DNA of 64,000 nt. Origin: Candidatus Bathyarchaeia archaeon. Its GTDB lineage: Archaea; Thermoproteota; Bathyarchaeia; Bathyarchaeales; Bathycorpusculaceae. The stretch spans positions 19,743-83,742 of the forward strand of contig JBEKSS010000014.1 in assembly GCA_049516875.1 (NCBI GenBank). Direction: 5' to 3'. The notes beneath the pieces were generated by a model, which saw only the letters and a program-made list of their open reading frames with translations, was not told the DNA's origin and did not search any database. The position numbers and the translations under genes were made by a program. How positions within the stretch are numbered: the stretch's first letter is position 1; every line of letters begins with the position of its first letter. Shown here piece after piece: positions 214 to 62,978 of this stretch.

Positions 214-1026
214 TTTCTGTTACCTCTGTCATGTATATATCAACCCAACTTCCTAATTTATGGTTGACGAGGAGACAATATGCCTTTCTAGCATGATGCA
301 AGCATGAAGCGAAGCGCACTTGGTGGCTGACGCCAGATAACGAGCTTGCTATGGCTAGGACAGATAGCTTTCAAACCCTTCCCCCTTAAATTGCGAATGG
401 GGGAAAGGCTTATGTCTCCGAGGAGCGCGCGCTGTATTGTTGTCTTCTAGGTATAAGCTTCTAGATGGTTACCATAGCTCCTTTAGTGGCTTTAACGTTT
501 CTTGCCCTTGGCAGGAAGTTGCTGTCTCAACTGTTTCTTTTTCGCTTCTTTATCCCGTTCTATCTTTTTCTGTTGTGCGATTTGAGTATTCTTTTGTTTA
601 CGTTTCATTACACTCGGCATAAATCTCAGCTACAAATTAACGATAAATAAACAAGCTAAAAAATATTTCTTTCGCATTAATGGAGGAAGCCAATAATATC
701 CAAAACTGACGCGTCTTTCTTTCATTTCATTAAAGAAGCCAACTTTATGGTAAAAAGAGAAAAAGAGTTTTGCAAAGCTCTTTCTTGGGGCTTAAGAAGC
801 CTGTGTTTTGCTTTGCTTTTCCTAAGTCTAGAAGAGGCTCGGCTTACAGATTTTGGGTCTTGGGGCGCGCGCTAGGAGTTAAAGCGCGTTGCAGAGGGGT
901 TTTGGGGTTGAGAATTCTGGAACGCATGCTGGCTTTAGCGCGCGCTGTCGGTGCTGGTGTTCTAGGTTTTCAATCGAAGGTTCTTCCACAAATCATAAGA
1001 CTGAAAACAGTAGATATAACAAATGA

Positions 1027-1995
1027 TTGAAAATGAGCCGAAAACTTGTTTTGATGTTGACCTTGACACTTCTCATTGGCACGTTGGACTTGTCATTTGA
1101 AGTTCAAAGGGTTGAAGCATCTGGAACCATTTACATACGGGCTGACGGAAGTATAGACCCGCCAACAGCACCTATTTCAACAATTGACAATATCACATAC
1201 AGCTCAACGGGTAACATTAACGACAGCATCATTATCGAGCGGGATAACATTGTGGTTGATGGAGCACGCTACACCGTGACTGGAAACGGATATAGCGGGA
1301 ACGGAATAACGCTTACTGACAGGAACAACGTAACAGTGAGAAACATGACGATAAAAAACTTCTACATCGGCACCTATCTCTACTCTTCTTCTAACAATGT
1401 TTTGTCTGGCAACAGCGTCACAAACAACTCTTATGGCATTTTGCTCGTGTCTTCTTCTAACAATGTTTTGTCCGGCAACAACGTCACGGCAAACAACGGA
1501 AACGGCATCTATCTCCTCACACCTTCTTATCTCCTCACTTCTTCCGATAACAACACCTTGTCCGACAACAACATCGCAAACAACAACGCTGCCATAGAGC
1601 TCGACTCTTCTGATGACAACGTCTTGTCCGGCAACAACATCACAAACAGCGGGATAAGTGTCGAGCTCGTTTCTTCTTCAGGCAACAGTATCTACCACAA
1701 CAACTTCATCAACAACACCCAGCAGGCATTAACCAGCGAGGGCTATACCAACAGCTGGAATGAGAGCTATCCTTCTGGGGGCAACTGCTGGAGCGACTGC
1801 AACGGAACAGATGCAAACCATGATGGCATCGGTGATACCCCGTACATCATTGACGCAAACAACACAGACAACTATCCACTTATGGTTCCATATACAATTC
1901 CAGAGTTTCCAGCATTCCTCATTCTGCCGTTATTCTTCATAGCAACACTACTGGCGGTCATAGTGCAAAGAAGAAAACACCCTCGCGCGCGCTAG
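1027..1995 (+). CDS. Secreted NosD/CASH parallel beta-helix protein with PEF-CTERM-like sorting signal
   Basis: Signal peptide, repeated SSNNVLSGNNVT beta-helix units, GNCWSD...DGIGDTPY motif, C-terminal IPEFP + TM + RRK. Confidence 0.85.
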   Translation: MKMSRKLVLMLTLTLLIGTLDLSFEVQRVEASGTIYIRADGSIDPPTAPISTIDNITYSSTGNINDSIIIERDNIVVDGARYTVTGNGYSGNGITLTDRNNVTVRNMTIKNFYIGTYLYSSSNNVLSGNSVTNNSYGILLVSSSNNVLSGNNVTANNGNGIYLLTPSYLLTSSDNNTLSDNNIANNNAAIELDSSDDNVLSGNNITNSGISVELVSSSGNSIYHNNFINNTQQALTSEGYTNSWNESYPSGGNCWSDCNGTDANHDGIGDTPYIIDANNTDNYPLMVPYTIPEFPAFLILPLFFIATLLAVIVQRRKHPRAR

Positions 1996-2011
1996 CGTGC
2001 GCATGCCAAAA

Positions 2012-2668
2012 TCAATTTTTCTTGATTGACTTGATAACCTTGTTTGTCAGTTCTGTACACTGTTTCAACGCAGCTTTGTTCTTTAGGACTTCGCCCTTTT
2101 CATCACCTGCTCTGACGTTGACCGCTATGAAGGGAGGACGATCGTGTGAGACTAATGTCAACCCAAGAGATTCGATATACTCTACAACAGTACGCAGTGT
2201 TTCCTTCTTGAATCTGCCCGTGCCTGACAAGGCAAAAACGCAGAAAGGTTGTTGCTTCGGTAGAAGCTTATAGTTTGGTTCTGCGAAGGTGTGTTTGTAG
2301 CCTTTGTGTTTTCGCATATGAACAATTGTGTCCAGTCTTTCCAAGAAAGCTAAGAATTTTGAGGAAGCCAACAGATACTTGGGGAATATGAACATTAACG
2401 CGTCGGCTTTCTTCATCTCTGCGAGAATCTGGTTCAGATCATCTGTAAGGACACATTCTTCGTGCACACATTTTTCGCAGAGAACGCAAAACTCAATCTT
2501 CTTGCTTGCCAATTGGATTATTCGGGACTTGGAACTTGTAGACTCGAGGATAGACTTGGCTAATGCGTAACAGTTGCCATCGTTTCTGTGGGAGCCCACT
2601 ATCGCCAGAAGTTTTGTTTTCATAGACATAATTAAGCTGGTTTTCATTAAAGTCTTTATTGGTACCAA
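2012..2668 (-). CDS. Flavodoxin-family / iron-sulfur flavoprotein (NADPH-dependent FMN reductase fold); start probably at about 2623-2629
   Basis: GSHRNDGN FMN-binding loop, CxxCxxCxxxxC motif, DDLN..ADA. Confidence 0.8.
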   Translation of the reverse strand: MVPIKTLMKTSLIMSMKTKLLAIVGSHRNDGNCYALAKSILESTSSKSRIIQLASKKIEFCVLCEKCVHEECVLTDDLNQILAEMKKADALMFIFPKYLLASSKFLAFLERLDTIVHMRKHKGYKHTFAEPNYKLLPKQQPFCVFALSGTGRFKKETLRTVVEYIESLGLTLVSHDRPPFIAVNVRAGDEKGEVLKNKAALKQCTELTNKVIKSIKKN

Positions 2669-2709
2669 CTGACGCGCGCGCTAAGTAACAATACGCAGCT
2701 TTTGTTGGT

Positions 2710-2822
2710 CTTTTGTAACAAAATACTGTAACAAAACGCAAAAATCGGGGAAAAACTCCAGTTTCCAAAAAGTCAATAGAGAGTCCATGCATTTTGGCTT
2801 TTTTTCAGACTTTTGTGACAGG
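2710..2822 (+). repeat. Dispersed ~115-bp repeat, copy 1 (three TGTRACA units)
   Basis: CTTTTGTAACAAAATACTGTAACAAA identical to 61668-61693; similarity continues about 90 bp. Confidence 0.75.
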
Positions 2823-3049
2823 AAACAAAACTCCTAGAAATAAGCTTCTTTCTAGGAAATAGAATGAACTCTTCAACGTTTCCGACTTAACACCAATTAT
2901 AACCTTTCTGTGCAAAAGGCATTTTGACAAGTTCACCGCAAAACAGAGGAACTAGACAAGGATAGAAGGAAATGACGAACAAGGCGATCACGGCTTGGTT
3001 GTCTGAGGAGAAGAAACTGCAAATTGGATAGTGCGCACAAAGTGTAGGT

Positions 3050-3840
3050 TCAACTGCCTTTTTTCAGGAAATCTAGCATCTGCTTCATTTCTCTGTTCTT
3101 ATCGTTCTCTGTGGAATAGTCTCTGAAAAACTCGAATACAAGGTACTTCAGACTCTTGCAACGTTTCAATTGGTCTGTTATGAAGCCCAATTCTTGGACT
3201 GTTGGCTTATAGTGACCAAACCATTTTTTTCGCGGATCCTAGCGACAGAAAGATGGGCTGTGCATATTTCATCATTCAAACGAGAAACCCAATCAACAAG
3301 AGCTTCCATCTTCCCCTGATTTGACTCCAGAACGTGTCCTATGTCCATGCAGGAGAATAGGCTACTGTTATCCATAACCTTTGCATAGGTTCCCAAATTC
3401 GAGAATATGCCATTATTACAGTTTTCAACCGTTATCTTGCCAACTCTCTTGATTTCCTTCCCCATTTCTTTCAATGTTTTGGCTATGCGGGACGAAGTGA
3501 CGTTTTCTTCTTCAAAGCTCCCCAAATCCGTCTGTATGTGAATGTTGAAGTATTCTGACTTGATTCGCGATGCAAAGCTTGCTACCGATAAGATGGTATC
3601 ATGACTACCTTTTCGGACTCCTTCCCAAGGAGAGTACAAATAGATCGTCTCCCAAGGAGATTGAACACCTGCCTCTAGAGAGTATTCTTCAAGAGCCTCT
3701 AGTATTTTTCCTGTGTCTTCATCTAACCATGTGGGTGTGTCTATTATGATATCAACGAAATCAAAACTGAGGTTGCCAGCGATTGTTATGCCATTGACGA
3801 TTGAACCATGTCTAAAAATCACAGGAAACCCGAATTTCAT
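3050..3840 (-). pseudogene. Sugar-phosphate isomerase/epimerase (AP endonuclease 2 TIM barrel), frameshifted at an A7 run near 3224-3230
   Basis: NIH, TVEN, CMDIGH and AHLS motifs. After the A7 run another frame continues KWFGHYKP...YLVFEFF...KKGS* to 3050. Confidence 0.65.
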
Positions 3841-4095
3841 CTTGGGTCACGGATACAATAGCACGCGTGAATACTTTATAAAATAAACGCGCGCTCTTTT
3901 ACTTTCCAACCATGATTCAAAAGTGTGTCGTTAAATGGGAAAAGATAACATTAAACTTATTAACGATATCCTAAATGCATTGCATTTTAGCGTCTGATAC
4001 TCAATGAATTTAGTGAACGCACGTTTCTGTCAGCTGGTAGTCTAGTAGGTACGTTTTGATTTTGCCCTCAACTTGTGAATCGAAGGACTCGAAGG

Positions 4096-4833
4096 CTAGA
4101 GAAAAAAGCGTGCATTCAGTTCTGTTATTGGTAAAAATCTCTGGAATGCTTCTCTGATGTCACCGCTGTTTTCCAATTCGTATAGATATCCTAGTGCCCA
4201 GTAATCTTCTCCGTCGAAAGATTGATTCAACATTCCCCTAAGGTATTTTTCAATATGCGTTCCAAGGCACATCGAATTGCAGACGAAATGTAATCCCCAA
4301 TTTCTTTCGTTTTCACCGACCAGATAAGCGTCGATGTATTGCTTGATTGTACTCGCGAGTTCCCCATCATTTCTCCAGCTAAGCTGTTTCGTCCTGTCGT
4401 CACTAAGTAATTCTAGAGCAATTTCAGTTCCTTTAGAAGCGAAGTTAAGTATTTCATCAACAGAAGAGCTGTAATCTGAAAGTACCTTAGGTCTATCAAG
4501 CTCAAATTCATAGTCTCTTATCTCAAGCTTGTCCTGTTGGGGGTTGACGAGGAATCTTGAAGACAAGTCAGCCATTGCATCTCGGATTTCCGGTGGGATT
4601 TGTGTTTTCTGTTCCTCTGAAAGGTAAATGCTGCGACTTGTTGGTGGATTCATCGAAGGTATGCTGAGACAGGCGTAGAGCGAATCATCAGGAGTGCGGG
4701 GAGATTCGAAGTGGTAAGTCAGGACACAGCCGTTGATCAGCGAATTTCGCCACTTGAGGACTAATGATCTGAATAATTTGTGCAGCTTTATCTGCATGTC
4801 AACTTTGCATTTAAAATCAAAATGCACCCACAA
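4096..4833 (-). CDS. Hypothetical protein
   Basis: 245-aa ORF of normal composition, no motif recognised. Confidence 0.6.
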   Translation of the reverse strand: MWVHFDFKCKVDMQIKLHKLFRSLVLKWRNSLINGCVLTYHFESPRTPDDSLYACLSIPSMNPPTSRSIYLSEEQKTQIPPEIRDAMADLSSRFLVNPQQDKLEIRDYEFELDRPKVLSDYSSSVDEILNFASKGTEIALELLSDDRTKQLSWRNDGELASTIKQYIDAYLVGENERNWGLHFVCNSMCLGTHIEKYLRGMLNQSFDGEDYWALGYLYELENSGDIREAFQRFLPITELNARFFL

Positions 4834-5171
4834 GGCTCTTCCACATCGGTAGCTAGCTAGTTTCAGCTATAACTTTTCCGCAAAATCCTGTAAGGTTTCC
4901 TTGTGTGTCTCCTGTCGCCCCCGTGGCCCCGGGTCCGTGGCCCCCTTTTCTTTTTCCATTTTCCTTAGGAAAAATTAGAGGTGCCTCTTTCCCTTGCCCA
5001 CCCCTTTTGTGCGTGTGTGGGTGATATGGAGAGAGTAGGTAGGTGTGTGCTTGAGTGTGTGTTAGTAAGAGTCGTAGAGAGTAGTAGAGAGCGCGTGGCG
5101 TGGTGCGGCTTGAGGGGTAAAGTCTTATCCCAAACCCAATTCATAGTTGACTGGCAGGGTCTGAAGGAGAC

Positions 5172-5477
5172 GTGGGCGTTTCGACAGGAGCACATTGGAA
5201 ACGAAGGCTAATCTCTCTCGTCTGGATTCTTTTGCCATTTTTTTCGTATGGTTTGTATCTGACTTGGTTTGATGGGGGCGTTCTCGAGGGGATGGAAGCT
5301 GAATCTGTTGTTGTGTATGTTCCCCTTGCCTTTCTGCTTGCTTTTCTTGATTTGATTGTCAATAAGTGGCTGCTACTGATGCTGTATTACGTGTTGTCCT
5401 TTGTAGCGCTATTCGTCGGTTACTACATTTATGACAAACGCAGGCAAAGGGTGCGCACGCTACCGCAAAAAACCTGA
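5172..5477 (+). CDS. Small membrane protein
   Basis: GGAG RBS, about 3 hydrophobic segments. Confidence 0.5.
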   Translation: MGVSTGAHWKRRLISLVWILLPFFSYGLYLTWFDGGVLEGMEAESVVVYVPLAFLLAFLDLIVNKWLLLMLYYVLSFVALFVGYYIYDKRRQRVRTLPQKT

Positions 5478-5623
5478 ACATTATTGTTACCGTCTGCTTT
5501 GTTCGTCGTTCATCCATTTTGTGACTATTTCTTCTGCATTGGTTTGGTTTGGGGTAAAGTTTTATCCCAAACCCAAACCCAAAAACAGAAAAGTGTGTGT
5601 TACGAAGTTATGAGTGACGCGGA

Positions 5624-6310
5624 ATGAAACGAAAAGTCGTTCTTGTGCTTTGCATATTGCTTGTGATGGTGATTCTAGTATCGTCAATGGTTTACTACTT
5701 CTGGTACGTGCCTTATGTGCACGTTCCACAAGCGCTCGGGCGGCAGTATATGTCGGTGTCTTTCTGGCCAGAATTTATTGGAGATATCAAAAGCAGCCCG
5801 ACTCCCCTCCACCTAAACTATGAAGGGAATGCGATGAACGTAACTTATGTCTCAATAGAAATCAATGTGACCAATAGCTACTTCCAACCTGTATACATAA
5901 ACTTCAGCGGTTTTGACGTAGTCTGGCTCATATATAAAAGGACGGTAACTGACCCTTCAGATGTCCTGAGTAACAGAGACTCTCTCGTTTGGGGGGCTTA
6001 CTATTATTTGGTTTATGAAGCAATATCGAACCCACGTAGAGGTATCCACGACTTCGCGGGAGACGATCTAGAATTCTATTCAGCAAATAGAAACAACACA
6101 AATTTCCAGACAGACATACCGAGCGGTAGCAGATCACAGTACTATGGGTACGCGTTGTTCGATGATCACATGGGCGGCGAGTGGTATGGCCAATATTATT
6201 CAAATCCTGAGTCACTCGTATCTCCAGGAACGTATTTCATGTACTGCATAATCTACGACTTTTCATGCACTCTACAAAACATAACCATAACTTCAGCAGC
6301 CCTACACTAG
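5624..6310 (+). CDS. Membrane-anchored/exported hypothetical protein
   Basis: N-terminal basic + hydrophobic anchor, Ig-like C-terminus (PGTYFMY), several N-x-S/T sites. Confidence 0.7.
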   Translation: MKRKVVLVLCILLVMVILVSSMVYYFWYVPYVHVPQALGRQYMSVSFWPEFIGDIKSSPTPLHLNYEGNAMNVTYVSIEINVTNSYFQPVYINFSGFDVVWLIYKRTVTDPSDVLSNRDSLVWGAYYYLVYEAISNPRRGIHDFAGDDLEFYSANRNNTNFQTDIPSGSRSQYYGYALFDDHMGGEWYGQYYSNPESLVSPGTYFMYCIIYDFSCTLQNITITSAALH

Positions 6311-6350
6311 CAAAAACGATCCTGTATTGAGACTCAGCGCACGCGCTATC

Positions 6351-6626
6351 TTAGGGTTCGACTCTTGTGGTATTCGGGAAATTAAGGCTGGCGTGTTGGT
6401 CGTAACCCGTCTTTAGTACAAGTAATTCTGGTTTTGGTGTTGTCGATTGATCTTTAGCTTGTGGTTGGTCTTTGGTTTCGGGTTTGGTTTCTTCATTCAT
6501 ACTTTTTGCCCTTTCTAGGAGTTTGGGGATTTCTATTTCTGTCCTTAGTCTCCCGTGTTCTATTTCGTCACGTGTTCTTTTTTGGGTTTCGTTTGTTTGA
6601 TTTGTCATGTATATCCTCCAATTCAC
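6351..6626 (-). pseudogene. Integrase N-terminal fragment (intN) of element 1; probable start 6608
   Basis: GGAGGA RBS before MTNQ. Reads ...ELLVLKTGYDQHASL across att, in the same frame as the integrase C-part. Confidence 0.75.
6386..6409 (-). repeat. att direct repeat 2 (distal att of element 1)
   Basis: 24-bp identity (26 bp with the AA at 6384-6385) to the rnpB 3' end. Confidence 0.95.
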
Positions 6627-6833
6627 CGCGTGCGTCGGTTTTTCTTTTTAACGTTTGGTCTCGCATGTACATCAACCCACATTCCTAATCGTTTCATTGA
6701 CGAGGCGACAATATGCCTTTCCCGACTGAGCAACTTTTTAGGACTGCGGGGAGCGCGCGCTGTGCGGGCGACTTGTTGCTCTGTTGGATTTCCGCGCTAC
6801 TTTACTGAGCGTTAAAACGGCGGGTGTTTATAG

Positions 6834-6907
6834 CGTTCTGTTGTTTACTGTTGTTTGTTGTTTGTTCTGTTGTTGTTTGTTCTGTTGTTGTTTGTTCTGT
6901 TGTTGTT
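6834..6907 (+). repeat. T/G-rich tandem repeat, about 3 copies of TTTGTTCTGTTGTTG
   Basis: Directly visible 15-bp periodicity in the non-coding part of element 1. Confidence 0.7.
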
Positions 6908-7155
6908 AGCGTGTGTTAGTTAATTCGTTCCTGTTAGCGAGAGTATAGCGAGTTGTTTGTGGCGTTATTGTTGCTGTTCCTTTGGCGTTCGATTGGCGTT
7001 TTGCCTATTTTTGTAGCGCGCGCGACCTTGTTGGATATTTTGTATCAGTAAAAAGTTGCGAAGGAGGCGCACCCTGAGCGGAGCGAGGGGGAAAGGCTTA
7101 TGTCGCCGAGGATTTCGAAGCGCGCGCTATAATACTTTTGCGCGCGATTTCTTGC

Positions 7156-7746
7156 TCATTTGAGCAGTTGGGATATTTTTGACAGTTTTTCCTGAGTCTG
7201 GTTTACTGAATCCACGATTTGTCGGTATTGTTTTGGATACTTCTTTGCGATTGTTATGAACTGTTTTACCACTTGGGGGGTGAATCCTGTGCGCATTTGG
7301 TTGGCTAGGATGGAATCGATGTCGGTTTGTTCTATTTTTCCCTTGGTTAATGCTGCGAGATATAATACCTCGAACGCGTTTTCTCCGAGAATCGGTGTGG
7401 TTTCTATGAGAAATTGAAGGTTAATGTCTTTTGGATAAAATTCACGTGCTCTGATAAGAATTGTTTGGGGATCTGCTCCTCTGCTTATTGCGAGGAATAT
7501 GCCTAGTTCGGTAAGCCAGAAAGACGGGTATTTTGTGCCGTGATATTCTTTAGTTGTTACGCTTTTGATCAGTCCTTTCTTCTTCAGTGTGTCGAAAGCA
7601 ATCCATGTGGATTTGTACTGCCCGTTGATTTGCTTCATAGTTTCATTAATGGTTTGAGCGTTGTTCCTTGCCAGACTCAGAATTACACGCTCCTGCAAGG
7701 GAGGAAAGTCACGTGTCTTCCTATTTTGCTTAGACATATGTCTCAC
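7156..7746 (-). CDS. Winged-helix DNA-binding protein, divergent from the Rep operon
   Basis: AFDTLKKKGLIKS...FWLTELG wHTH signature. Confidence 0.7.
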   Translation of the reverse strand: MRHMSKQNRKTRDFPPLQERVILSLARNNAQTINETMKQINGQYKSTWIAFDTLKKKGLIKSVTTKEYHGTKYPSFWLTELGIFLAISRGADPQTILIRAREFYPKDINLQFLIETTPILGENAFEVLYLAALTKGKIEQTDIDSILANQMRTGFTPQVVKQFITIAKKYPKQYRQIVDSVNQTQEKLSKISQLLK

Positions 7747-7875
7747 TGAGCTTAGATATGTTATATCTCACCATATATAAAAGTTCTTGCCTAAAACTAC
7801 TCGGTGAGAAAAGTTGTTTGAAAATTCGAAACGGAAAACTGCGCACGCTGTGCTCCCTTTGGGAGTTGATTTTCT

Positions 7876-8076
7876 ATGGCTGAGGGTAAGCTGCTGAACT
7901 GTATCTTCTGGGATGGTGTCGCTTGTAAGCATCGTAAGTCTGAGACGGTGAACATGATGGTTCGATGTTGGAGCTGTCGCCAGTTCAAGCGGTTTGTGAG
8001 ACAAATGGATGATGCTGATGCGAAAATCATGGAGGAAAATGAGAAGAGGCGTTCGGAAGGTGACGGTCTTGGTTGA
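7876..8076 (+). CDS. Small Cys-rich (Zn-finger-like) protein upstream of Rep
   Basis: CIFW..C, CWSC motifs; overlaps Rep start. Confidence 0.6.
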   Translation: MAEGKLLNCIFWDGVACKHRKSETVNMMVRCWSCRQFKRFVRQMDDADAKIMEENEKRRSEGDGLG

Positions 8077-9094
8077 CGCTGCTGTCCTCCGATTGGTTCG
8101 CTATTTTCTGGTTCTCCTTAGGTTGAACCCTCAGTTGATGGAGAATGCCTATTGGTATCTGCCCGTTCTGGACGATGGCCACGATAATTATGCGCAGGTG
8201 GGTCATAGCCCTAGCGTTGTAACTCCTTACTGTTGCTATTTCAGGGGTTGGAAGGTCTGTCGTGAAAAGGACTTGCATAAGGGTGTGGTTGTGAACGGTG
8301 TTGATTTTACGGATAAATCGGCGGTTTCCCCTTCACATCTCTGGTGTAAGAATTGGCATTGCCCTAAGTGTTTTCTTCACGGTGCTTGTGTCGTTGGTGC
8401 CCGTAGGATTGAAGACCGCCTGACTGCCTTCGTTGAGCGTGGACTTGGTAAGGTCGAGCACGTAGTTTTTTCGGTTCCAAAGGCTTCTCAGGACTTACCA
8501 TTGGAAGTCTTGTTCAAGATGCTTCCGTCAGTGGCAAAGGACAGGGGCGTGTCTGGTGTCTCAATTTTTCATGGGCGGTACATAAATACTGAGCTTGGCG
8601 GCCTTGCATGGAGAGCACATTTCCACGTGTTGGGTTTTGTTGACGGTGGCTTTTACCGTTGCAGGACTTGTGAACATGAGCGCAGTGCATGTGCTAGCTG
8701 TGACGGTTTCAAGGGTTGTGAAGTTCGAGGCTTTGCCAAAGACGGGTGGATTGTCAAGGTTGCTGATGAACGTTTGAGCATCTTTGGTACGGCGTGGTAT
8801 CAGTTAAATCACCATACGGTAAAGCTCGGTTTTCGCAGGGTGCACTCTGTCAGATGGTTTGGTAAGTGTGGCAACAGGATGCTAAAATCCAAGTACCATA
8901 GGTCTGGTGCTGGTTGCTCCTGTCCCGTTTGTCGGGCTGCTGGTCACGAGTCGGTAATGGATAATGGCGGATACTGGGGTAAACGTTTGCCTGATGATGT
9001 CTCCGATCCGCGTTACAAGTCTGTTTACGCTGTGCCTGATTTGGATGAAGAGGGCTTGCCAAACTTTGCCGATGGAGGTGATAGACTTGGTTAA
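8009..9094 (+). CDS. rep: HUH rolling-circle replication initiator with Zn-binding motifs (IS91/SNJ1-RepA-like architecture); start probably GTG about 8060
   Basis: CKNWHCPKC Zn motif, motif I HVVFSVP, HUH motif AHFHVLGF, motif III TAWYQLNH, C-terminal CPVC. Confidence 0.8.
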   Translation: MMLMRKSWRKMRRGVRKVTVLVDAAVLRLVRYFLVLLRLNPQLMENAYWYLPVLDDGHDNYAQVGHSPSVVTPYCCYFRGWKVCREKDLHKGVVVNGVDFTDKSAVSPSHLWCKNWHCPKCFLHGACVVGARRIEDRLTAFVERGLGKVEHVVFSVPKASQDLPLEVLFKMLPSVAKDRGVSGVSIFHGRYINTELGGLAWRAHFHVLGFVDGGFYRCRTCEHERSACASCDGFKGCEVRGFAKDGWIVKVADERLSIFGTAWYQLNHHTVKLGFRRVHSVRWFGKCGNRMLKSKYHRSGAGCSCPVCRAAGHESVMDNGGYWGKRLPDDVSDPRYKSVYAVPDLDEEGLPNFADGGDRLG

Positions 9095-9245
9095 GGTCCA
9101 AATATGTCCTTTCGATGGCTTACCATGCGAGTTTGTGGATTCTTGCGATGATGCTATGGTCTTGCTCTTAGAGCGTGAAGGTCTCAAAGGCTTCGATACT
9201 GAGAATGGTGAACATTGTTCACGCGCTGTTATTCGGCTAAAATGA
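9087..9245 (+). CDS. Small Cys-rich protein coupled to the end of Rep
   Basis: GGAGGTGA RBS, TTG start, CPFDGLPCEFVDSC motif. Confidence 0.55.
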   Translation: MVKVQICPFDGLPCEFVDSCDDAMVLLLEREGLKGFDTENGEHCSRAVIRLK

Positions 9246-9287
9246 GTTTCGTACCAAGCGCGCGCTCTAATCTTCTCTTTTTTTCTC

Positions 9288-10082
9288 TTAGCGCGCCCAC
9301 AAGCGCCATTTTTTGGTTTCAGACAAAATAGTTTTGCCCAATTCAGTAAAGTAGTATTCTGGCTGACCGCCATACACTTTTTTCCTGAAGGGAATCGGCT
9401 TTGCACTTCTAATGACTCCGAGATTGATAAGGTCACGGGCGATTCTTCTCAAGTCGTTCTTCTCACAGCTTTCATGGTAGAGACCATACTCTCCTTTGCG
9501 GCTTGAATCGAATGCACATAAGTCAAAACCCCTATCAACATATCCTCGGACTACTTCCAAAAATGAGATCATATCAATGTCCAATGCGCCCAAAACATTT
9601 CTGACCATTAAGTCTCTCGTTAAGTCCACTTGTTTTTCGGCATTTATCACAAGCTTTCTTATTTTGTCTCTTGAATTTTTTGCATTCTGTGTGGAAAATT
9701 TGTTCCATCTGAGGTGCCTAATATCAAAAGAAATATTTTCTGACTTTTCATCCCTTACGATGATTACCTCCTGTGGCAGACGGATGGCATGAGCTATGCC
9801 CAGTTCGTACATAACATTTGGATTTGGTCGGTCTTTTTCATCATTCGAAATATCGAATAACAACAACTTTGCTCTGCCGACTCCTTCCAAAACATCAATA
9901 GGAATCGAGTCGCTAACAAGTCGCTCTTTTGTACGATATGGTTTCAGACCGCATGAAAGAATAGCAGGTTTAAAGATATCTTTCCATCGTTGTTCGAATT
10001 GAGAGGAGAAAGGCATTGCCACAAATACTTCCATTGTCCTATCGAATGACCTGAACAAGTCCATGTAAGTTTTTGGGTACAT
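9288..10082 (-). CDS. Nucleoside 2-deoxyribosyltransferase/TIR-like domain protein with possible C-terminal wHTH
   Basis: VFVAMPFS, D-I-S, NPNVMYELGIAHA, FDIRHLR motifs; YYFTELGK at the C-terminus. Confidence 0.75.
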   Translation of the reverse strand: MYPKTYMDLFRSFDRTMEVFVAMPFSSQFEQRWKDIFKPAILSCGLKPYRTKERLVSDSIPIDVLEGVGRAKLLLFDISNDEKDRPNPNVMYELGIAHAIRLPQEVIIVRDEKSENISFDIRHLRWNKFSTQNAKNSRDKIRKLVINAEKQVDLTRDLMVRNVLGALDIDMISFLEVVRGYVDRGFDLCAFDSSRKGEYGLYHESCEKNDLRRIARDLINLGVIRSAKPIPFRKKVYGGQPEYYFTELGKTILSETKKWRLWAR

Positions 10083-10165
10083 TCCTATTGCATCATTCCA
10101 ATTTCTTGTACCTTACGTGGAACTTTCCAAACAAATTGGTTTCACCAGACATTTGATTGAGTGCC

Positions 10166-11370: not shown

Positions 11371-11755
11371 TTTTATTCTCCGTTATCTCGTTAGTGAACT
11401 AACACATAAGAGGTTTTTGGTCAGTATGTCTTTTGTTCAATTTTGTGGTCTGAAACCACGTTCATGTAGTACGCGACGTCGGTTCTTTGAGCACATCGTC
11501 TGGAACGTGCGCGCGCGCATTGATGTTGGGTCGATTCGTAAGTTTCATAGAAAATGAGCAATTAGAAGCGTGGATGATGGCGAAAATGGAAAGATTGATA
11601 AAGGGGCAGCGAGTATTTGTGAGGAGTTTGTTTCGTCAAGGGTGACGCTTGCATGGACGCTGTCTTCGCGGCCTAGGCCGTTATTGCACTGTGTTGGTAG
11701 CCTAGTCTATAGGTCTGTTTGGCGCCACCAATCTTGAAACCAGGAGGTTTCCATT

Positions 11756-12025: not shown

Positions 12026-12037
12026 AGGGGAACACTG

Positions 12038-27943: not shown

Positions 27944-27972
27944 AGAAAAAAGTTCTATTCAAAGAAGGCAGG

Positions 27973-53462: not shown

Positions 53463-56400
53463 TTATCTTTCTCCTTTGAGCCAGCCCTTGATTCCGAGTT
53501 CCTTGACCGTTATGTTTGTTCGTTTGGGCTCATGGGTTTTCTCCATGCCGCTCGCATCGATGTATAGTATTCTTGGTTCTATGTGAAGAGTGCCTTGGAC
53601 CTTTGGTGTCAGAACGAGCTTTACTATTTCTGTCTCTTGTGGGCCAAGCCGCTTTTCCTTCATGTTGAGACAATTATCTTCCATGCGGTACAATTCAGGT
53701 TTCTTTACCATTGCGAAGCCTTCTGGGATGACTTCTGTGATTTTGGTCAGCAAAACGGCGCCTTTCTTGCGCGTGTTTGTAACTTCTATTTCCAGCTCAA
53801 GATTCTCACCTATCTTCAATTCGTGCGGTGTAGCTATGACGTTGCATTGAACCTCAGCGTAACCATGACTTTCTGGGCCGACTGTTTCTTTGCGTATCTC
53901 AATCAGAGGAGGAGGTAAAGCCTCGACCAATTTCATTGTTCTCTCAATTTCTTTTTTGGCCCCCATCTTCTGGAATATCTCTAGTGCTTCGTTGAGAAGC
54001 TTGCGAGCTTTCTCTCTGTCACCTTCTTGATTTCTCTCCAAATACATTTTAGCATACTCACAGAACACCATTTTGGCAAGCCAATAGACGTTCCATCGCT
54101 TTGCATCTAGAGTTTCGAACTCCCTAAGGCTCTTCTCAAAAAGCTCAATAGATTCAGCCCATTTCTTCTCGGCGTGTAACAGCATTGCCCCAAGACCATC
54201 TGCAACGGCGACCAGAAACTTGTTCCCTTTTTCAAGAGCATATTCTTGCATGCCGTCAATCAGATCTCTTGCTTTCTCGATTTCACCGATCTCCAGATAC
54301 ACGGGGACGACAAACCTGGAGACGCCTATTTGATGGCTTTTTGCCCCATGTCTTTCAGCGACCTGGTACATTTTTTCAAGGAATTCCTTTGCCTTGGCGT
54401 ATTCCCCTTTGTCAAAATGGAACCAGCCGAGATATCCGAAAGCGCTCATGATTGCCTGATAATCGTCCAATTTCTGGGAAACGCTTAGAGCCTCATTATA
54501 GTATTGCTCGCCTTTGCTCCATTCTCCCAGTAGCATATGGGCGAATCCGAGAAGGTCCAAAGAAAAAGGAAGGTGAGTAATATAACCGGCCTTTTTGTCC
54601 AGCGCAACAGATTCTTCCAGCATTGGCACCGCCTTGTTGACATCTCCCATGTCAACGTAATTTCCAGCAAGATTGGTGCCAATCCAAGACATCCATGAAG
54701 GATCGCCCACCTTCTTTGCAAGTTCAAATCCTTTCTCCAAATATTCCAATTTTTTCTCATGCTCTTCTGCGGGTAGAAAGCCAGTGTCATTGTAAACCCA
54801 GAGAGCGGTATCTGTATAGCCGTTGTCAAGAGCTATCTTTAAAGCCTTGTCCATACACTCTGCAGCTTTCCTCCTTTCTCCAAGCATTCCAAGGATTTCG
54901 CCTAAACTTGCGTACGAACGTGCAATAACATCGAACGCGTTCAGTTGCGTGGCAAGCTCAACAGCCTTCTCAGCCCAAGAGCGGGCCTCAGTTAAGTTGC
55001 CGCTGGCGCCCATGCAGATCATGGCTGCAATGTCTTCGTAAAGCCTGGCCAATTCAACGCCCGCGGTCCCTGCCTCCAAGATTTTCAAAGCGTTACCATG
55101 ATGTTCCCTTGCCTTTTCTCTGTTGCCCAGATTGCTCCAGAGAACGTTTGCCATTTTACGGTGCAATGCAGCCGCGGTCTCTCTTTCGCCCAGTTGCTTC
55201 CACAAACGCAAGGCTTCGTCCCAGTGCTTTATTCCTTTATCATATTCCCCGACGAGTTTCTCGATGTCGCCCACCTTCTCAAGGAGACAGGCCCTTTTCC
55301 GCGGTTCGCCTTTCGTTTCTTCCAACAGTTTGAGGGCACACTGGAAGTATGAGATCGCCTCGTCGTTGGCATAGATTTTTGCGGCTTTTTCTCCTGCCTC
55401 TAAGAAATAGTTTAGAGCTTTCTCCTCCTCTCCTCCTTCAAGAAAATGGTACGCGAGTTCTCCAAGATGTTGGTCGACGTTTTTCGCGAAGGCCTTTTCC
55501 AAGGCACATCCGACGGTGTTGTGAAGTTTCTTATGTCTGAGCAAGCTGACTTCCTCGTGCACAACGTCTCTTATGATGATGTCTGAAAAAGAATACACAT
55601 CTTCGCCGCGAATCAACTTCTCCTTGATTAGTCCGGTTTTGAGTATTCTTTCCAAAAGTTCAAGAAGTCTGTTTTCTTCAATTCCAGTGACTCCGCGTAT
55701 GGCCTCAAAAGTGAAATCGCTCCCAATAAAGGAAGCCAGAGTCAAAATGTTCTGACACTCGTCATCTAAGCGATTTATTCTTGCCTTTATGACGTTCTTA
55801 ACAGTCTCAGGAAACTCAATCCTTGAAACTTCTTTAATCTTCCATTTGTTCTCCTCTCGAAAGATTACCTCTTCTTCTTTGAGTGAGTTTATCACTTCCT
55901 CTGCGAAGAACGGGTTGCCTCTCGTTTTCTCGTAGACCATCCTGCAAAATTCCGTCGGAACATCTTCTTGCTCCAGTATCTGCTTAATCATTTCAGAAAT
56001 ATCGTTTAGAGACATTCGTTTCAAAGAAACAGACTGGGGTATGCGTTCCCTGTTCAACTCCGTCAAGACAGGTGTCAACGGATGCTTAGCATCAATGTCG
56101 GTGCTGCGGTAAGCCCCAAGAAGGAGCAGAGGCGTCTTTTGGACGCCGCGTGCCATATAGTGCAAAAGCAGAAGTGAAGATGGATCAGTCCACTGCAAGT
56201 CATCAAGAACCACTAACAAGGGAACTTCTCTGGAAATGTTGGTGATGAACTGGGAAACTGCTTCAAAGAGCCTGTTTTGTTCCTGCTCGGGGCTTATCGG
56301 AAAGGACTGAGGGATTGTCCTGAGCTTCTGGCCAAGCTCTGGAACCAGCTTGGCAACTTCAGCCGGATAGAAGCCAACGACCCTGTACAACTGTTCCGGG

Positions 56401-56720
56401 CTGCTGTTTTCCAAATAGTCTCTGATGACTTCGCTCCACAGAACGTATGGTGGAACGCCGTCCATTCTGAACAGGGCTGGGCATCTGCCATACAGAACTT
56501 GCATTCCACGTAGGTGTGCGTAGGCTCTAAGCTCTCTTGCCAACCGCGTCTTGCCGATTCCTGCCTCTCCATAGAGAAGAACGAGGCCGCCCTCACCTTG
56601 AATCGTCCTGTCGACAGCTTCTTTCAGAAGCTTCATTTCTTCAACCCTGTCGATAAGCGGAATCTCTTTTGCAGCGATAGGACGGGGACTCGGAATGCGG
56701 CCGCGTTCAAGTGACGTCAA
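53463..56720 (-). CDS. STAND-like AAA ATPase with TPR array and C-terminal Ig-like domain
   Basis: GEAGIGKT, LVVLDDLQW, GNPFF, multiple TPR-like repeats. Confidence 0.88.
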   Translation of the reverse strand: MTSLERGRIPSPRPIAAKEIPLIDRVEEMKLLKEAVDRTIQGEGGLVLLYGEAGIGKTRLARELRAYAHLRGMQVLYGRCPALFRMDGVPPYVLWSEVIRDYLENSSPEQLYRVVGFYPAEVAKLVPELGQKLRTIPQSFPISPEQEQNRLFEAVSQFITNISREVPLLVVLDDLQWTDPSSLLLLHYMARGVQKTPLLLLGAYRSTDIDAKHPLTPVLTELNRERIPQSVSLKRMSLNDISEMIKQILEQEDVPTEFCRMVYEKTRGNPFFAEEVINSLKEEEVIFREENKWKIKEVSRIEFPETVKNVIKARINRLDDECQNILTLASFIGSDFTFEAIRGVTGIEENRLLELLERILKTGLIKEKLIRGEDVYSFSDIIIRDVVHEEVSLLRHKKLHNTVGCALEKAFAKNVDQHLGELAYHFLEGGEEEKALNYFLEAGEKAAKIYANDEAISYFQCALKLLEETKGEPRKRACLLEKVGDIEKLVGEYDKGIKHWDEALRLWKQLGERETAAALHRKMANVLWSNLGNREKAREHHGNALKILEAGTAGVELARLYEDIAAMICMGASGNLTEARSWAEKAVELATQLNAFDVIARSYASLGEILGMLGERRKAAECMDKALKIALDNGYTDTALWVYNDTGFLPAEEHEKKLEYLEKGFELAKKVGDPSWMSWIGTNLAGNYVDMGDVNKAVPMLEESVALDKKAGYITHLPFSLDLLGFAHMLLGEWSKGEQYYNEALSVSQKLDDYQAIMSAFGYLGWFHFDKGEYAKAKEFLEKMYQVAERHGAKSHQIGVSRFVVPVYLEIGEIEKARDLIDGMQEYALEKGNKFLVAVADGLGAMLLHAEKKWAESIELFEKSLREFETLDAKRWNVYWLAKMVFCEYAKMYLERNQEGDREKARKLLNEALEIFQKMGAKKEIERTMKLVEALPPPLIEIRKETVGPESHGYAEVQCNVIATPHELKIGENLELEIEVTNTRKKGAVLLTKITEVIPEGFAMVKKPELYRMEDNCLNMKEKRLGPQETEIVKLVLTPKVQGTLHIEPRILYIDASGMEKTHEPKRTNITVKELGIKGWLKGER

Positions 56721-57987: not shown

Positions 57988-58237
57988 GTGAATTTACCTA
58001 CCCGCGATTCGTCAAGGACCTCAATTTGAGAAAGTCCAAGATTTTGCTGAACCTTAGCCATTCGAATCTAAGCAATTGTACGCTGCAACTCTATATATTA
58101 TTTTTGCGCGCGCGCCGACGTGGGGAAACACGCAGCTCGGATTACGCTGCATGTAAAGTGCGCTGGCCGGCGAATAGTTGTCACACACTTCGGACAAGGC
58201 CCAAGTGGAAGGGCTCTTGCCGTGGCCGCTGAAGCGA

Positions 58238-59584: not shown

Positions 59585-59713
59585 AGCAAAGTTCTTATCA
59601 TTTAAATGCGTATTGGACACGTGAGCCGAAGGTACGAGATTTGTTGAGTAGGCTATTTATGGCAATATTGCTGCGCGCTAGAGAAAGGTAAGCAGTTCAC
59701 TCGCGCGCGCTGT

Positions 59714-60961
59714 TTGATTGTAGCTTTATATTCAATCGTGAAGAACAGCTTCAGCAAGAGTGGACCCTTTACGTACAAAACCCTGGAAGTCCTAGGCCCA
59801 GAGCACGAGTTTTCAATTGTGAATGACGAGCTTGAGGCATTGCCCATCGTAGACAAAATCATAAAGGATTTCCATGGCCGAGTTGTCAACTTCGTCGAAC
59901 AGCCAAGCTTTACCTTTGGCAAAGAGCTTCAGTTGCACGTCATGGAATTCAAGCCCAACGCTCCTTTCAAGACACCGGTGGAGTTTGAGGAAACAATGCA
60001 GGAAGCCATCTTGACGATTCAGGATTTCCTGCAACGTAAATTTCACGCACATCTTCTCGGAACGGGCATGCACCCACTACTAGAACTCGACGAAACTGGA
60101 ATTTGGCCCCACCGCCACAGACAAATCTACGAGGCTTACAGCAAAATCTTCAACCTCAGACGGCACGGATGGCTCAACATTCAGAGCTTCCACCTCAACC
60201 TCCCATACTCAAACGAAGAAAGCGGAATCCTGCTTCACAACACACTTGCAAACATATGCCCATACTTGTCCGCAATCAGCGCTTCTTCACCAATCTACGA
60301 AGGCAGGCTCGGAGACGGAGTCGACAACAGACTGTACTTCTACATGCAAAACCAAAAAGAAATCCCATCAGTAACCGGCGACGTGATTCCAGAATACACA
60401 TCCTCATTCAGCCAGTACAAAACGAACATCATAGGCAAGTACTCAGACGATCTATCCAAGGCAGGCGCAGACAAGCTTGTCCTGAACAAAGAATGGGTGA
60501 ACAGCCGAGGAGTGATTTTCAGGTTCGACAGAAGAGCCATCGAAATTCGAATAATGGACGAACAAGAATGCATCAAATCAGACGTCGCATTGAGCTGTTT
60601 CATCAGAGCGGTATTGAGGGGACTAATGAATCAGGACCCAGAGTTTCTCCCTCACACAGTCCTAGTACAGGATCTCAACGCAATCATGATGAATGGACTC
60701 AGCGCCAGCGTTCATCACCCACACGGAGAGACTGCACGTCGAGTCTGCGAATATTATTACAGCATCGCTCTGGGGAACGCCACAGCAGACGAAAAAAAAT
60801 ATCTCCCTATAATCCAGAGAAGAATAGAATGTGGAAACCTCTCTGAAATCCTGCGGGAAAGAGTGGAGAAAAAAAGCCAGAGAACGGATTTGAGAGAAGT
60901 CATCATCGACACCTACTCGAAACTTGCAGAGAGCCTTGCTAGAAATCAGCCCTACTTCTAG
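59714..60961 (+). CDS. Glutamate-cysteine ligase family 2 (GCS2) protein
   Basis: G.EHEF, KELQ.H..E, GMHP, QSFHLN, SASSP, AIEIR..D.Q. Confidence 0.85.
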   Translation: MIVALYSIVKNSFSKSGPFTYKTLEVLGPEHEFSIVNDELEALPIVDKIIKDFHGRVVNFVEQPSFTFGKELQLHVMEFKPNAPFKTPVEFEETMQEAILTIQDFLQRKFHAHLLGTGMHPLLELDETGIWPHRHRQIYEAYSKIFNLRRHGWLNIQSFHLNLPYSNEESGILLHNTLANICPYLSAISASSPIYEGRLGDGVDNRLYFYMQNQKEIPSVTGDVIPEYTSSFSQYKTNIIGKYSDDLSKAGADKLVLNKEWVNSRGVIFRFDRRAIEIRIMDEQECIKSDVALSCFIRAVLRGLMNQDPEFLPHTVLVQDLNAIMMNGLSASVHHPHGETARRVCEYYYSIALGNATADEKKYLPIIQRRIECGNLSEILRERVEKKSQRTDLREVIIDTYSKLAESLARNQPYF

Positions 60962-61529: not shown

Positions 61530-61667
61530 TCAACATTGCATGGCAAAGATGACACCTTACAGCAAACTTCAACAAAAAGACCAGATACGAGTGCAACCTT
61601 TCCAGCGCGAGTCCCTATCGAGGATAATACAGCGCTTGCTAACAGTTAAGGAACGGTTTTTGATGGA

Positions 61668-61781
61668 CTTTTGTAACAAAATACTGTAACAAACCGTCGC
61701 AAATCGGGAAAGACTCCAATTCTCAAGAAGTCAATAAACGTAACATCGTTTTTGGCTCTTTTTCAAAAGTTTGTAACAGAG
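61668..61781 (+). repeat. Dispersed ~115-bp repeat, copy 2
   Basis: Paralogue of 2710-2822. Confidence 0.75.
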
Positions 61782-61876
61782 AACAGTTCTCGAAGAATTG
61801 AGCTTCTTTAGCGCGCGCTTGATTCCAGCCGCAGAAATGCGAAGTTTCATAAAAGGTTTCAGCATAAGCATAGTAT

Positions 61877-62389
61877 ATGAAGGAATTGCGCACGCGTGCG
61901 CAGCGTGCTAACCTGACCAAGGTGCTTTTCGCGCTGATAAAGAATTCAAAGCGGAGCGACAGGGAGCTGGCTAGAGCTCTGCAGCTCTCTCAGCCAACCG
62001 TGACCCGACTTCGGAAAATTCTGGAGAAAGAAGCGATTGAACAATATACTGCGATCCCGAACTTGTCCTACTTGGGTTTTGATTTGATATCATTCACGTT
62101 CTCCACTACAAAGGAGCTTGTTAACCCTCTCGAGGACAAAGGAAAGAAATGGACAGCGGAACAGCCAAGCGTCATGTTCGCCAGCACTGGACAGGGAATG
62201 GACGCAGACGCGGTCATGGTTTCAGTGCACAAGGACTACGCGGACTTCGCCAAGTTTTACCAGAACTTCAGAAGAGACTGGGGTGGTTCCCTTCAGAACT
62301 TCAGGACTTTTCTGGTTAGCGTGAAGGGAAGCGTACTGCTAAAGGCGTTGTCACCAAACTGCTTAGTCGAATCATATGCCAAGGAATAA
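61877..62389 (+). CDS. Lrp/AsnC-family regulator
   Basis: NSKRSDRELA..L..SQPTVTR....LE; Y.AIP....LGF. Confidence 0.85.
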   Translation: MKELRTRAQRANLTKVLFALIKNSKRSDRELARALQLSQPTVTRLRKILEKEAIEQYTAIPNLSYLGFDLISFTFSTTKELVNPLEDKGKKWTAEQPSVMFASTGQGMDADAVMVSVHKDYADFAKFYQNFRRDWGGSLQNFRTFLVSVKGSVLLKALSPNCLVESYAKE

Positions 62390-62522
62390 GCCTGGCTAAA
62401 CACTCACGTTAGCGGTTAACTTCGACCATTAACCATAGAATCCGGTTTTGATTTCTTCAACAAGTCAGCACAGCAAACCTTGATCAAGGTGGATGAGATT
62501 AGCGCGCGTTCTGTGACTTATG

Positions 62523-62924
62523 CTAGCTTATGAGTTCAGCCAACGTGCCGAATGCTTCGAGGAAGCTCTTTCCTTTAGGAGTGGTTCTGTAGGTGGCTGT
62601 CCTTTTGAGAATTTGTACGTCCAGTAGCCCAAATCTAGTGAGCACGTCCATGTACTTGTGCAGCTGAAGACTGCTTAGCCCGACTCTCCGCATGATTTCC
62701 GTTTTCCTGGTTCCTCCAATCGCACAAGTCAGCATGTCCGAGAATATGCCTAACCGATCCCTGTTGCCCTTCGTCTGCGAAAACGAACCTTTCTGCATCA
62801 TGAAAAAGCTTGCAGTGATATTATGTATAAATCCGTTAGGTACGAGCGCTAATGACTCACCTATCGTTTGAAACGTGGAAGAACAAAGTCTGCCCAGTTT
62901 TGACACCCATTCACGTAAAGACAT
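62523..62924 (-). CDS. Winged-helix regulator (start likely about 62801)
   Basis: RDRL.I..D.L...KTEIM....L......Y...L...GLL; Y.TT.KG..FL. Confidence 0.8.
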   Translation of the reverse strand: MSLREWVSKLGRLCSSTFQTIGESLALVPNGFIHNITASFFMMQKGSFSQTKGNRDRLGIFSDMLTCAIGGTRKTEIMRRVGLSSLQLHKYMDVLTRFGLLDVQILKRTATYRTTPKGKSFLEAFGTLAELIS

Positions 62925-62978
62925 GTATTGGGCAGTTTTTTGCGCGCGCTAATACGGTTTGACCGTCATACTCTTCCG

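Follow-up and report, generated by a model that had tools for sequence, protein, structure and literature searches.

The alternating-GC octamer GCGCGCGC is scattered through a stretch of 64,000 nucleotides from the genome of a Candidatus Bathyarchaeia archaeon (NCBI GenBank assembly GCA_049516875.1, contig JBEKSS010000014.1), which was analysed at its full length and is called the window here. The motif is a feature of the non-coding DNA of one Bathyarchaeia genus from peat soil, and it coincides with the outermost bases of a family of insertion sequences (IS) and MITEs (miniature inverted-repeat transposable elements) that has a matching distribution. It is a transposon-derived short repeat of unusual scale, and we infer the chemistry by which the 8-mer forms. 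In the explanation that we favour, to which we assign slightly better than even chances, a solo octamer is a transposon scar: two element tips were left abutted, and the length of the run then drifted by slippage of GC units.

The window (C14:19743-83742 of this organism's genome, G000, which comprises 2.43 Mb in 20 contigs with a GC content of 47%) contains 38 overlapping exact matches to GCGCGCGC, which form 31 maximal runs, seven of them being 10-mers. Dinucleotide-preserving shuffles of the window, the GC content of which is 42-51%, gave a mean of 0.80 matches and a maximum of 6. This agrees with the random expectation of under 1 given in an earlier sequence-only reading of the same DNA. 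All 30 octamer coordinates listed in that reading turned out to be exact matches, and one further run, at 29769, had been overlooked. The enrichment also survives genome-wide Markov correction, which had been proposed as a check. G000 carries 447 sites, or 388 alternating-GC runs of at least 8 bases, and a both-strand tally, which counts a palindrome twice and turns the 447 sites into 894, compares with 61 expected from an order-3 Markov model, a 14.6-fold excess. Among octamers with at least 100 counts, GCGCGCGC has the highest observed to expected ratio in this genome. The suspicion that the motifs might be chimera junctions was not borne out, as contigs of independent peat and wetland metagenomes cross several of them with 0 differences (X2 record 3 over 6878-12103 and X6 record 27 over 6878-13204). 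Metagenome contigs cover the window unevenly; 866 and 7116 are the only places where one of their joints or loose ends is close to a motif, and gaps in this cover were not counted as evidence.

The runs have a preferred length, phase and immediate context. The length of maximal alternating-GC runs in G000 peaks at exactly 8 bases, with 212 such runs in the G..C phase versus 28 in the C..G phase. Longer runs of the G..C phase include 48 10-mers and one 12-mer; the longest alternating-GC run of either kind has 14 bases, and no (GC)8 was seen. The consensus is (T)A-GCGCGCGC-T(A). In the 212 exact 8-mers, A is found at position -1 in 152 and T at position +1 in 136, and the outer flanks are weaker (T at -2 in 86 and A at +2 in 92). 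The TA flanking that had been reported for the octamers is therefore real but partial, since TA is present on both sides in only 23 of the 212. Beyond +2, there is no conserved flank position up to 80 nt and no extended motif, TATA box or partner signal, and 77% of the 200-nt motif flanks have no other match in G000. Hence, the unit is a free-standing palindrome of 8-12 bp and not a part of a repetitive extragenic palindromic (REP) sequence, an attC site or a CRISPR repeat. No fixed spacing between motif copies was found in G000. A REP/RAYT or integron attC system was considered separately and rejected: there is no structured imperfect palindrome of at least 20 bp, and nothing is conserved past +2.

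These properties bear on the idea that the run is a (GC)n microsatellite or a Z-DNA-prone fragile site that breaks by itself. The idea draws on the GC-unit length polymorphism between 99%-identical strains and on the presence of junctions at the run, both described below. It does not account for the sharp length peak at 8, and the phase bias of 212 to 28 and the specific A/T flanks are likewise left unexplained by the earlier suggestion of Z-DNA formation. Furthermore, the runs are confined to one genus at similar GC content, and the idea offers no source for about 390 dispersed copies. We consider it highly improbable.

The leads tested included an element with terminal inverted repeats (TIRs) ending in TAGCGCGC and gene fragments cut at the motif. 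Counting the words that come after GCGCGC in G000 exposed a repeat family beginning (TA)GCGCGC-(A)TGCNTGTYCC. There are 19 paired elements in this genome, two of them inside the window. They are 163-3166 bp long, mostly about 184 bp or 220-300 bp, and have the termini TA-GCGCGC...GCGCGC-TA at both ends. The family consists of a 1.1-kb IS encoding an IS5/IS1182-like DDE transposase and of non-autonomous MITEs of 160-480 bp. A 1.1-kb copy in a second genome of the genus (G003:C2:77969-79081) has both termini and an open reading frame (ORF) of 348 amino acids, which matches DDE_Tnp_1 (4e-13) and DUF772 (2e-9), although the best NCBIfam matches of the transposase are below the curated cut-offs (IS1182, 87.7 vs 270; IS5, 66.3 vs 140). 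The transposase is intact in two genomes, at C2:78014-79057 in G003 and at C39:6585-7628 in G004. In G000, TA adjoins 28 of the 38 ends of the paired elements, a preference of the same sense as the T(-2)/A(-1) bias of solo octamers, which is weaker; these TA-flanked ends were seen without a clean empty site, and the TA is either a duplicated target or a part of the element. A 480-bp element with the same GCGCGC termini and an apparent small ORF (G000 C10:117471-117951; locus L313 372-852) may be a cargo-bearing MITE.

The motif and the family share their range. The 10-mer AGCGCGCGCT is found in all five genus genomes (G000-G004) in 98, 29, 87, 69 and 115 copies, respectively, whereas 26 genomes from the same family and order, but of other genera, have 0-9 copies each; a reversed control word gave 0-6. 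For the TIR pattern GCGCGCWKSBBTGTYCC, the counts in the genus genomes are 43, 11, 26, 6 and 82; of the 26 other genomes, G014 has a single copy and 25 have none. Close homologues of the transposase (45-100% identity) are confined to the five genus genomes. RadA relatives identify the organism as a Bathyarchaeia metagenome-assembled genome. Of 80 RadA loci on genome contigs, 76 are without the octamer, and none is clearly of the genus. Two genomes of other genera, G018 and G013, show a mild excess of AGCGCGCGCT, with 9 and 5 copies versus 0-1 of the control word. A comparison of viral contigs with the 14-mer TTAGCGCGCGCTAA matched 35 stretches, mostly of high GC content, with no obvious Bathyarchaeia virus among them. 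A link to Cas1 or a casposase was rejected because PF01867 was not found in G001 and G002 (the latter 97% complete) despite their 29 and 87 10-mers. A literature search, which did not extend to supplementary files, turned up no paper on this motif.

The tips and flanks of the elements, TA-GCGCGC...GCGCGC-TA, spell the extended solo consensus when it is written as (T)A-GCGC GCGC-T(A). In the scar explanation, an IS or MITE would be removed and its tips rejoined between two TA flanks, which would leave a solo (T)A-GCGCGCGC-T(A). The removal might proceed by excision and end joining, possibly with a Ku-dependent joining step, or by elimination of the hairpin or cruciform that a MITE could form. 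A scar of 4+4 bases could be made by cleavage, either blunt or through a hairpin, 4 bp into the tip, by resolution of a MITE cruciform at its base, or from a 6+6 product that was trimmed or contracted later. The length of the scar would subsequently drift via GC-unit slippage. Only dispensable DNA would tolerate insertion and removal, and when a break arises at a scar or at the end of an element, it would cause adjacent deletions, replacements and the capture of DNA fragments, so that scars would gather at the junctions of conserved and variable DNA and would be missing from genes and conserved spacers.

Comparison of the genus genomes provided one exact and two near-allelic cases of a MITE end facing a solo run. 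On contig C12 of G000, TA-GCGCGCGC-TA stands at the exact base of a MITE end in G004:C33; the left flank is identical, and only this one flank is alignable. In the two further cases, the distance between a solo GCGCGC and the corresponding MITE end is 3 nt and 10 nt, respectively, again with only one flank alignable in each. The G003 site that matches a MITE of G000:C15 has no GC run, which makes the GCGCGC a part of the element and not something that the target has to supply; three other boundaries opposite MITE ends also have no GC run. Remnants of graded intermediate length between a MITE and an octamer do not form a series (one match per genome in three of four genomes), which fits a scar made in one step.

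A number of findings weigh against the scar explanation. No excision event was seen, and no site was found in empty, occupied and scar states with both flanks alignable. None of the 19 MITEs of G000 has a clean empty site with both flanks colinear, and none of 20 MITEs of G004 and G002 has colinear flanks in G000 or G003:C1, so the MITEs themselves lie at breakpoints. The arithmetic of the tips is also unfavourable. Whole GCGCGC tips would make 12 bases when abutted, and annealed 4-nt self-complementary overhangs would give TAGCGCTA, which is not enriched (13 copies vs 23 of TAGCGCGCGCTA). As the tips thus yield 12 or 4 bases, the 8-base mode needs an extra assumption. Transposases of the IS4/IS5-type DDE group are generally held to cut exactly at the ends, which would remove every base of the element. 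In G000, there are about 9 solo runs for each element end (388 vs 43), and G003 has 69 10-mers but only 6 TIR ends. Solo octamers show the TA less strongly (T at -2 in 86 of 212 and A at +2 in 92 of 212) than element ends do (28 of 38). The sole close copy of the transposase in G000 has three in-frame stops. G018 and G013 have no TIR matches and no close transposase in spite of their nine and five 10-mers. In an alignment of five genomes, one spacer reads GCT[A/C]CT in four of them and GCGCGCGC in G003 only, and this in-situ gain shows no TA duplication. Ku is found in only three of the five genus genomes, with none found in G003 (93% complete) and G001 (77% complete). Finally, the synteny comparison described below uses our own crude gene calls and orthology and covers only 65% of G003 (contig C1).

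Ku (PF02735), which is uncommon in archaea, was detected in G000, G002 and G004. The G000 homologue is encoded at C9:92481-93017 (1.7e-40); a further one is present in G010, and none was found in 27 other relatives.

By our own crude gene calls, which score 80% of G000 as coding, 29 of the 31 window runs are intergenic, consistent with the earlier description of the octamers as nearly all intergenic or at gene ends. The remaining two are in the last codons of the gene at 1027-1995 and within a weak ORF of 110 amino acids at 48902-49234. As also stated earlier, there is no octamer inside aor (23381-25519), radA (31732-32790), topA (33359-35440) or the STAND gene (53463-56720). Across G000, 326 of the 388 runs are intergenic, 55 are coding and 7 are at gene edges, whereas on contig C1 of G003 the intergenic runs number 144 out of 173. 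The coding runs are near chance, 55 against roughly 25 expected. At least one copy is present in about 275 intergenic regions, every intergenic orientation is represented, and the distances from the motif to gene starts and stops are broadly spread.

The near-chance coding count is difficult to reconcile with a HIP1-like process, in which a mutational or repair drive tied to a methyltransferase multiplies the word and selection clears it from functional DNA. An octameric palindrome in extreme excess is what such a drive would produce, and the clean in-situ gain in G003, which occurred without rearrangement, is in its favour. However, homology breaks exactly at the motif, and none of the 388 sites has colinear homology on both of its sides within G000. 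No C5 methyltransferase (PF00145) scored above the cut-off in any of the five genus genomes, and N4/N6 methyltransferases (PF01555) are present in 28 of the 31 genomes and do not discriminate. With an excess that is almost wholly intergenic and limited to one genus, the HIP1-like label of the sequence-only reading is not supported, and we judge such a drive very unlikely.

Gene order was compared between G000 and the 1.44-Mb contig G003:C1 (65% of G003), which share 873 reciprocal best hits with a median amino-acid identity of 82%. Where both orthologues of an adjacent pair are on this contig, the motif lies between them in 4 of 479 conserved pairs and in 12 of 74 broken pairs; for pairs with one orthologue on the contig, the count is 99 of 566. 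The difference persists in spacers of 100-800 bp, in which the motif is present in 3 of 120 conserved and 10 of 49 broken cases (P=2.8e-4). The association of the motif with synteny breakpoints that had been anticipated is thus borne out, also by strain-level indel junctions exactly at the motif (see below). None of the 69 conserved divergent (promoter) spacers contains the motif, versus 29 of 148 others, and none of the 65 conserved convergent spacers, versus 26 of 157. The motif is therefore no general promoter or terminator element. At orthologue breakpoint sides, it is present in both G000 and G003 in 12 of 714 cases, an odds ratio of 0.97, which means that the two genomes are independent. 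Motif sites are lineage-specific and turn over quickly; in another spacer aligned among five genomes, the octamer is present in G002, G003 and G004 and missing from G000 and G001. This independence and fast turnover argue against a conserved regulatory site.

The same numbers are at odds with the proposal that the octamer is a selected binding site of a regulator or of a chromosome-architecture protein. A short intergenic palindrome present in about 275 intergenic regions would look much like such a site at first glance. Its absence from all conserved divergent and convergent spacers, its independent presence in G000 and G003, the broad distances to gene starts and stops and the lack of a fixed distance to other signals make this role quite improbable.

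Repeats within G000 behave in a similar manner. Intragenomic repeats span the motif at only 3 of the 388 sites and end there at 41, whereas of 1164 intergenic control sites chosen at random, 87 are spanned by a repeat and 63 have a repeat end. The other copy of a repeat that ends at the motif has a motif at the matching point in only 9 of 71 cases. At C7:14338-14632, a 286-bp fragment of a repeat-protein gene has an octamer on both sides. Three conserved gene pairs have the motif between them in G000; they contain insertions of 400-640 bp that are bounded by two or three octamers, and the corresponding spacers of G003 are short and free of the motif. Blocks of unusually high identity between species also begin or end at the motif (424-823, 6752-7115 and the unit 13384-14050).

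Metagenome contigs of close strains and relatives (L173-L178) resolve some of these junctions to the base. L174, which is 99% identical, is without positions 32791-35995, a block of 3.2 kb that contains topA, and its junction reads TTA-GCGCGCGC-GGTC, where TTA is the stop of radA; the deletion ends exactly at the left edge of the octamer at 35996-36003. L175, which is 96% identical, has an octamer or a 10-mer exactly at both ends of the radA block and different DNA beyond. Its upstream radA junction is 4 nt from that of the window, and the motif-less L176-L178 run straight through. In a manual tally, about 6 of 13 strain-level boundaries were at most 3 nt from a (GC) run of at least three units in either sequence, versus about 0.2 expected by chance from the share of the window covered. 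The boundaries not at motifs include indels of 146 nt and 92 nt and the replacement of 26186-28499. At two sites, strains that are about 99% identical differ by having 8 or 10 bases, which means that GC-unit slippage is fast. Taken with the identity of the motif and the outermost bases of the IS and MITEs, the breakpoints and strain junctions support what had been proposed earlier, namely that the motif is a site of insertion or recombination, or a mobile unit's end.

The principal rival to the scar explanation is that the octamer serves as a pseudo-end, that is, a preferred insertion or cleavage site of the same transposase, so that elements home to existing octamers. The transposase would then move, in trans, any DNA lying between two octamers, and single octamers would trigger one-sided deletions. 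This explains motif-bounded cassettes better than a scar does. It is consistent with the positions common to MITE ends and solo runs, with motif-bounded units that recur in other contexts, such as 13384-14050 in G003, with the 286-bp gene fragment on C7 and the insertions of 400-640 bp between conserved neighbours, and with the one-sided deletion in L174 ending exactly at the motif edge. The window also has a GCGCGC-X-GCGCGC arrangement where L173 has a single GCGCGC. However, the G003 site that matches the G000 MITE and the three other boundaries facing MITE ends have no GC run, and the empty conserved spacers opposite motif-bounded insertions have no motif. The source of the first octamers, and with it the origin of the motif, is left unexplained, and an end of 8 bp is far shorter than the usual binding sites of transposases. 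We regard the pseudo-end model as fairly unlikely.

Junctions that fall exactly at motif edges could also be the work of a genus-specific endonuclease, restriction-like or homing-like and unrelated to the IS, that cuts AGCGCGCGCT; end joining would then insert, delete or swap DNA at the cut, and the IS ends would merely be similar. A 10-bp palindrome would suit a dimeric enzyme, and the three genus genomes with Ku (G000, G002 and G004) contrast with a single one among the 26 others. On the other hand, restriction recognition sites are usually avoided and not multiplied, the products of a fill-in reaction, (GC)8, are missing (the longest run has 14 bases), and the matching genus-only spread of elements with the same termini is left without explanation. 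No candidate enzyme was found, the restriction-endonuclease families and Vsr lying outside the search. Such an enzyme appears distinctly unlikely to us.

Within the window, many runs can be assigned to a particular boundary. The solo octamer at 425-432 opens a block of 400 bp whose identity to its counterparts in three other species is 92-99%. The one at 865-872, next to a loose contig end at 866, is the left edge of a stretch of 13 kb (866-14043) for which the syntenic locus of G004:C3 offers no match. The octamer at 1985-1992 abuts the TAG stop of the gene at 1027-1995, and that at 2674-2681 is 6 nt past the end of the gene at 2012-2668. A homology boundary coincides with the octamer at 6753-6760, and at the matching point G003 has a truncated IS or MITE end, about 85 nt long, on its far side. 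The octamer at 7016-7023 is kept at the same place in G003, and the one at 7120-7127 comes just after the point where homology is lost, both to G003 and to a related strain (loose end of X6 at 7116). The octamers at 13384-13391 and 14043-14050 are the left and right boundaries of a single-gene unit (13384-14050), which is 89% identical from motif to motif in G003; the latter octamer is also the right edge of the 13-kb variable stretch.

Further along, a repeat module of about 270 bp (25545-25816) has the octamer at 25817-25824 at its right end; its left end has an octamer in strain L173 and only GCGCG in the window. A 184-bp MITE at 28293-28476 has the termini GCGCGCATGC... and TA on both sides, and a 222-bp MITE at 40100-40321, of a second subfamily, has the termini GCGCGCTGGC... 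Two GCGCGC separated by about 150 nt at approximately 29346-29506 correspond to the single GCGCGC of L173 mentioned above. The run at 29769-29776 is the end of a multi-copy repeat that is shared with G002-G004. The 10-mer at 31576-31585 is an 8-mer in L173 and L174, by slippage of a GC unit. Another 10-mer, at 31665-31674, stands where variable upstream DNA meets the radA promoter; it is an 8-mer in L173, and the L175 junction is 4 nt off. Homology with L175 stops at the 10-mer at 35896-35905. The octamer at 48950-48957 is the one within the weak ORF, and that at 59703-59710 is 4 nt upstream of the start of the gene at 59714-60961. The remaining runs are exact matches: the solo octamers at 938-945, 9258-9265, 20251-20258, 30115-30122, 41377-41384, 41715-41722, 49910-49917, 50664-50671, 61811-61818 and 62942-62949, and the 10-mer variants at 11509-11518, 30725-30734, 47605-47614 and 58106-58115.

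Several other features of the window are worth recording. The 400-bp block at 425-823 contains no ORF of at least 100 amino acids and no convincing Rfam match (1-1100 checked). It is 99% identical to its counterpart in G004, 98% in G002 and 92% in G003, compared with 65-81% for core genes, and an octamer always flanks it on one side. The block may represent a non-coding RNA not described so far, or else an element that was exchanged recently. The repeat module at 25545-25816 is found also at G000 C3:85986-86463 and C7:70996-71640. It holds palindromes of the TTGAGTACTCAA type, one of its flanks has 129 matches in the genome, and GAGTACTC is 3.1-fold over-represented. At three loci, the module is inside octamer-bounded insertions that differ in their outer parts. 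Non-coding blocks are duplicated at 241-288 and 6674-6721 and at 400-424 and 7088-7112, each followed by an octamer. An X6 contig joins 287 to 7084; therefore, a related strain is without the intervening 6.8 kb. In runs X5 and X6, the depth of an abundant related strain is in the hundreds over 14.7-20 kb and 1-1.3 kb, but 3-19 over 7338-14674, a hint from contigs that suggests a strain-variable island.

The topA block (32791-35995) adjoins radA only in this strain and in L173, and radA and topA are on separate contigs in G002 and G004. Compared with L174, the window is without 146 nt at 36126 and 92 nt at 37834. There are few ORFs in the region of 36-40 kb, which looks like decaying genes, and no useful information came from the ORFs of L174's degraded stretch. 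A protein of 453 amino acids encoded at 15583-16944 is composed of repeats of about 52 residues and has no Pfam match; copies and fragments of it occur elsewhere in the genome and the genus. The archaeal RNase P RNA is encoded on the reverse strand at 15078-15385 (196.6 bits) within a block (14155-15430) that is 91% identical in G002. It was the only Rfam family found in the window, in which there were no tRNA genes.

If the solo octamers are scars, about 390 sites in 2.4 Mb form a dense and readable record, kept by this genus, of the entry and exit of mobile DNA. Records of this kind are well known from eukaryotes and are not a described feature of prokaryotic MITE biology; in the sections of a 2024 review of prokaryotic MITEs that were available (PMC10969869), the word "footprint" has 0 occurrences. 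Scars on this scale would also suggest that end joining is a routine repair route in an archaeon, and Ku is present in three of the five genus genomes. If instead the octamers act as pseudo-ends, gene-cassette shuffling or genome trimming at minimal sites of 8-12 bp would operate genome-wide in an uncultured archaeal genus, and the system would be a functional analogue of integrons, built of transposon tips and end joining. In practice, the motif is a marker of cassette and island boundaries in Bathyarchaeia metagenome-assembled genomes, and a transposase with very short GC-palindromic tips is tractable for biochemistry.

Among known systems, HIP1 of cyanobacteria (GCGATCGC) is similar in being an octameric palindrome that ranks with the most over-represented words of its genome. 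HIP1 is frequent inside genes, tied to CGATCG methylation and phylum-wide, whereas the present motif is intergenic, belongs to one genus and has no C5 methyltransferase found beside it. REP/BIME-RAYT systems and integron attC sites are likewise intergenic repeats tied to a recombinase, with cassette-like units bounded by repeats. REP and attC are structured imperfect palindromes of 20-140 bp, unlike the motif described here, which has nothing conserved beyond 10-12 bp.

Elements of the IS5/IS1182 type resemble the present family in the combination of DDE_Tnp_1 and DUF772, in the TIRs and TA-centred flanks, and in the coexistence of autonomous copies with many short non-autonomous ones. They differ in that the scores obtained here are under the NCBIfam cut-offs, and neither alternating-GC palindromic tips nor hundreds of solo tip-like octamers are a described feature of them. 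Their eukaryotic relatives are PIF/Harbinger elements with Tourist MITEs. Cut-and-paste excision footprints are known in eukaryotes from Tc1/mariner, Sleeping Beauty, hAT and P elements. The octamers would be analogous to these footprints, namely a short scar of element-tip bases between two copies of a TA target duplication, left by end joining. However, the host is a prokaryote, the scars far outnumber the elements, a mode of 8 bases is no simple consequence of GCGCGC tips, excision is something we infer, and the transposase is IS5/IS1182-like and not of the Tc1/mariner type.

The genomic role of the motif has a parallel in the dRS3, NIME and Correia repeats of Neisseria. These are also short, genus-specific repeats of the inverted-repeat type, present in hundreds of intergenic copies that divide unrelated blocks and are linked to rearrangements and to islands specific to individual strains. 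Among them, Correia elements are MITEs that have a TA duplication, and dRS3 is a 20-bp target of phage integration. Unlike dRS3, the unit in this Bathyarchaeia genus measures 8-12 bp and is equal to transposon tips.

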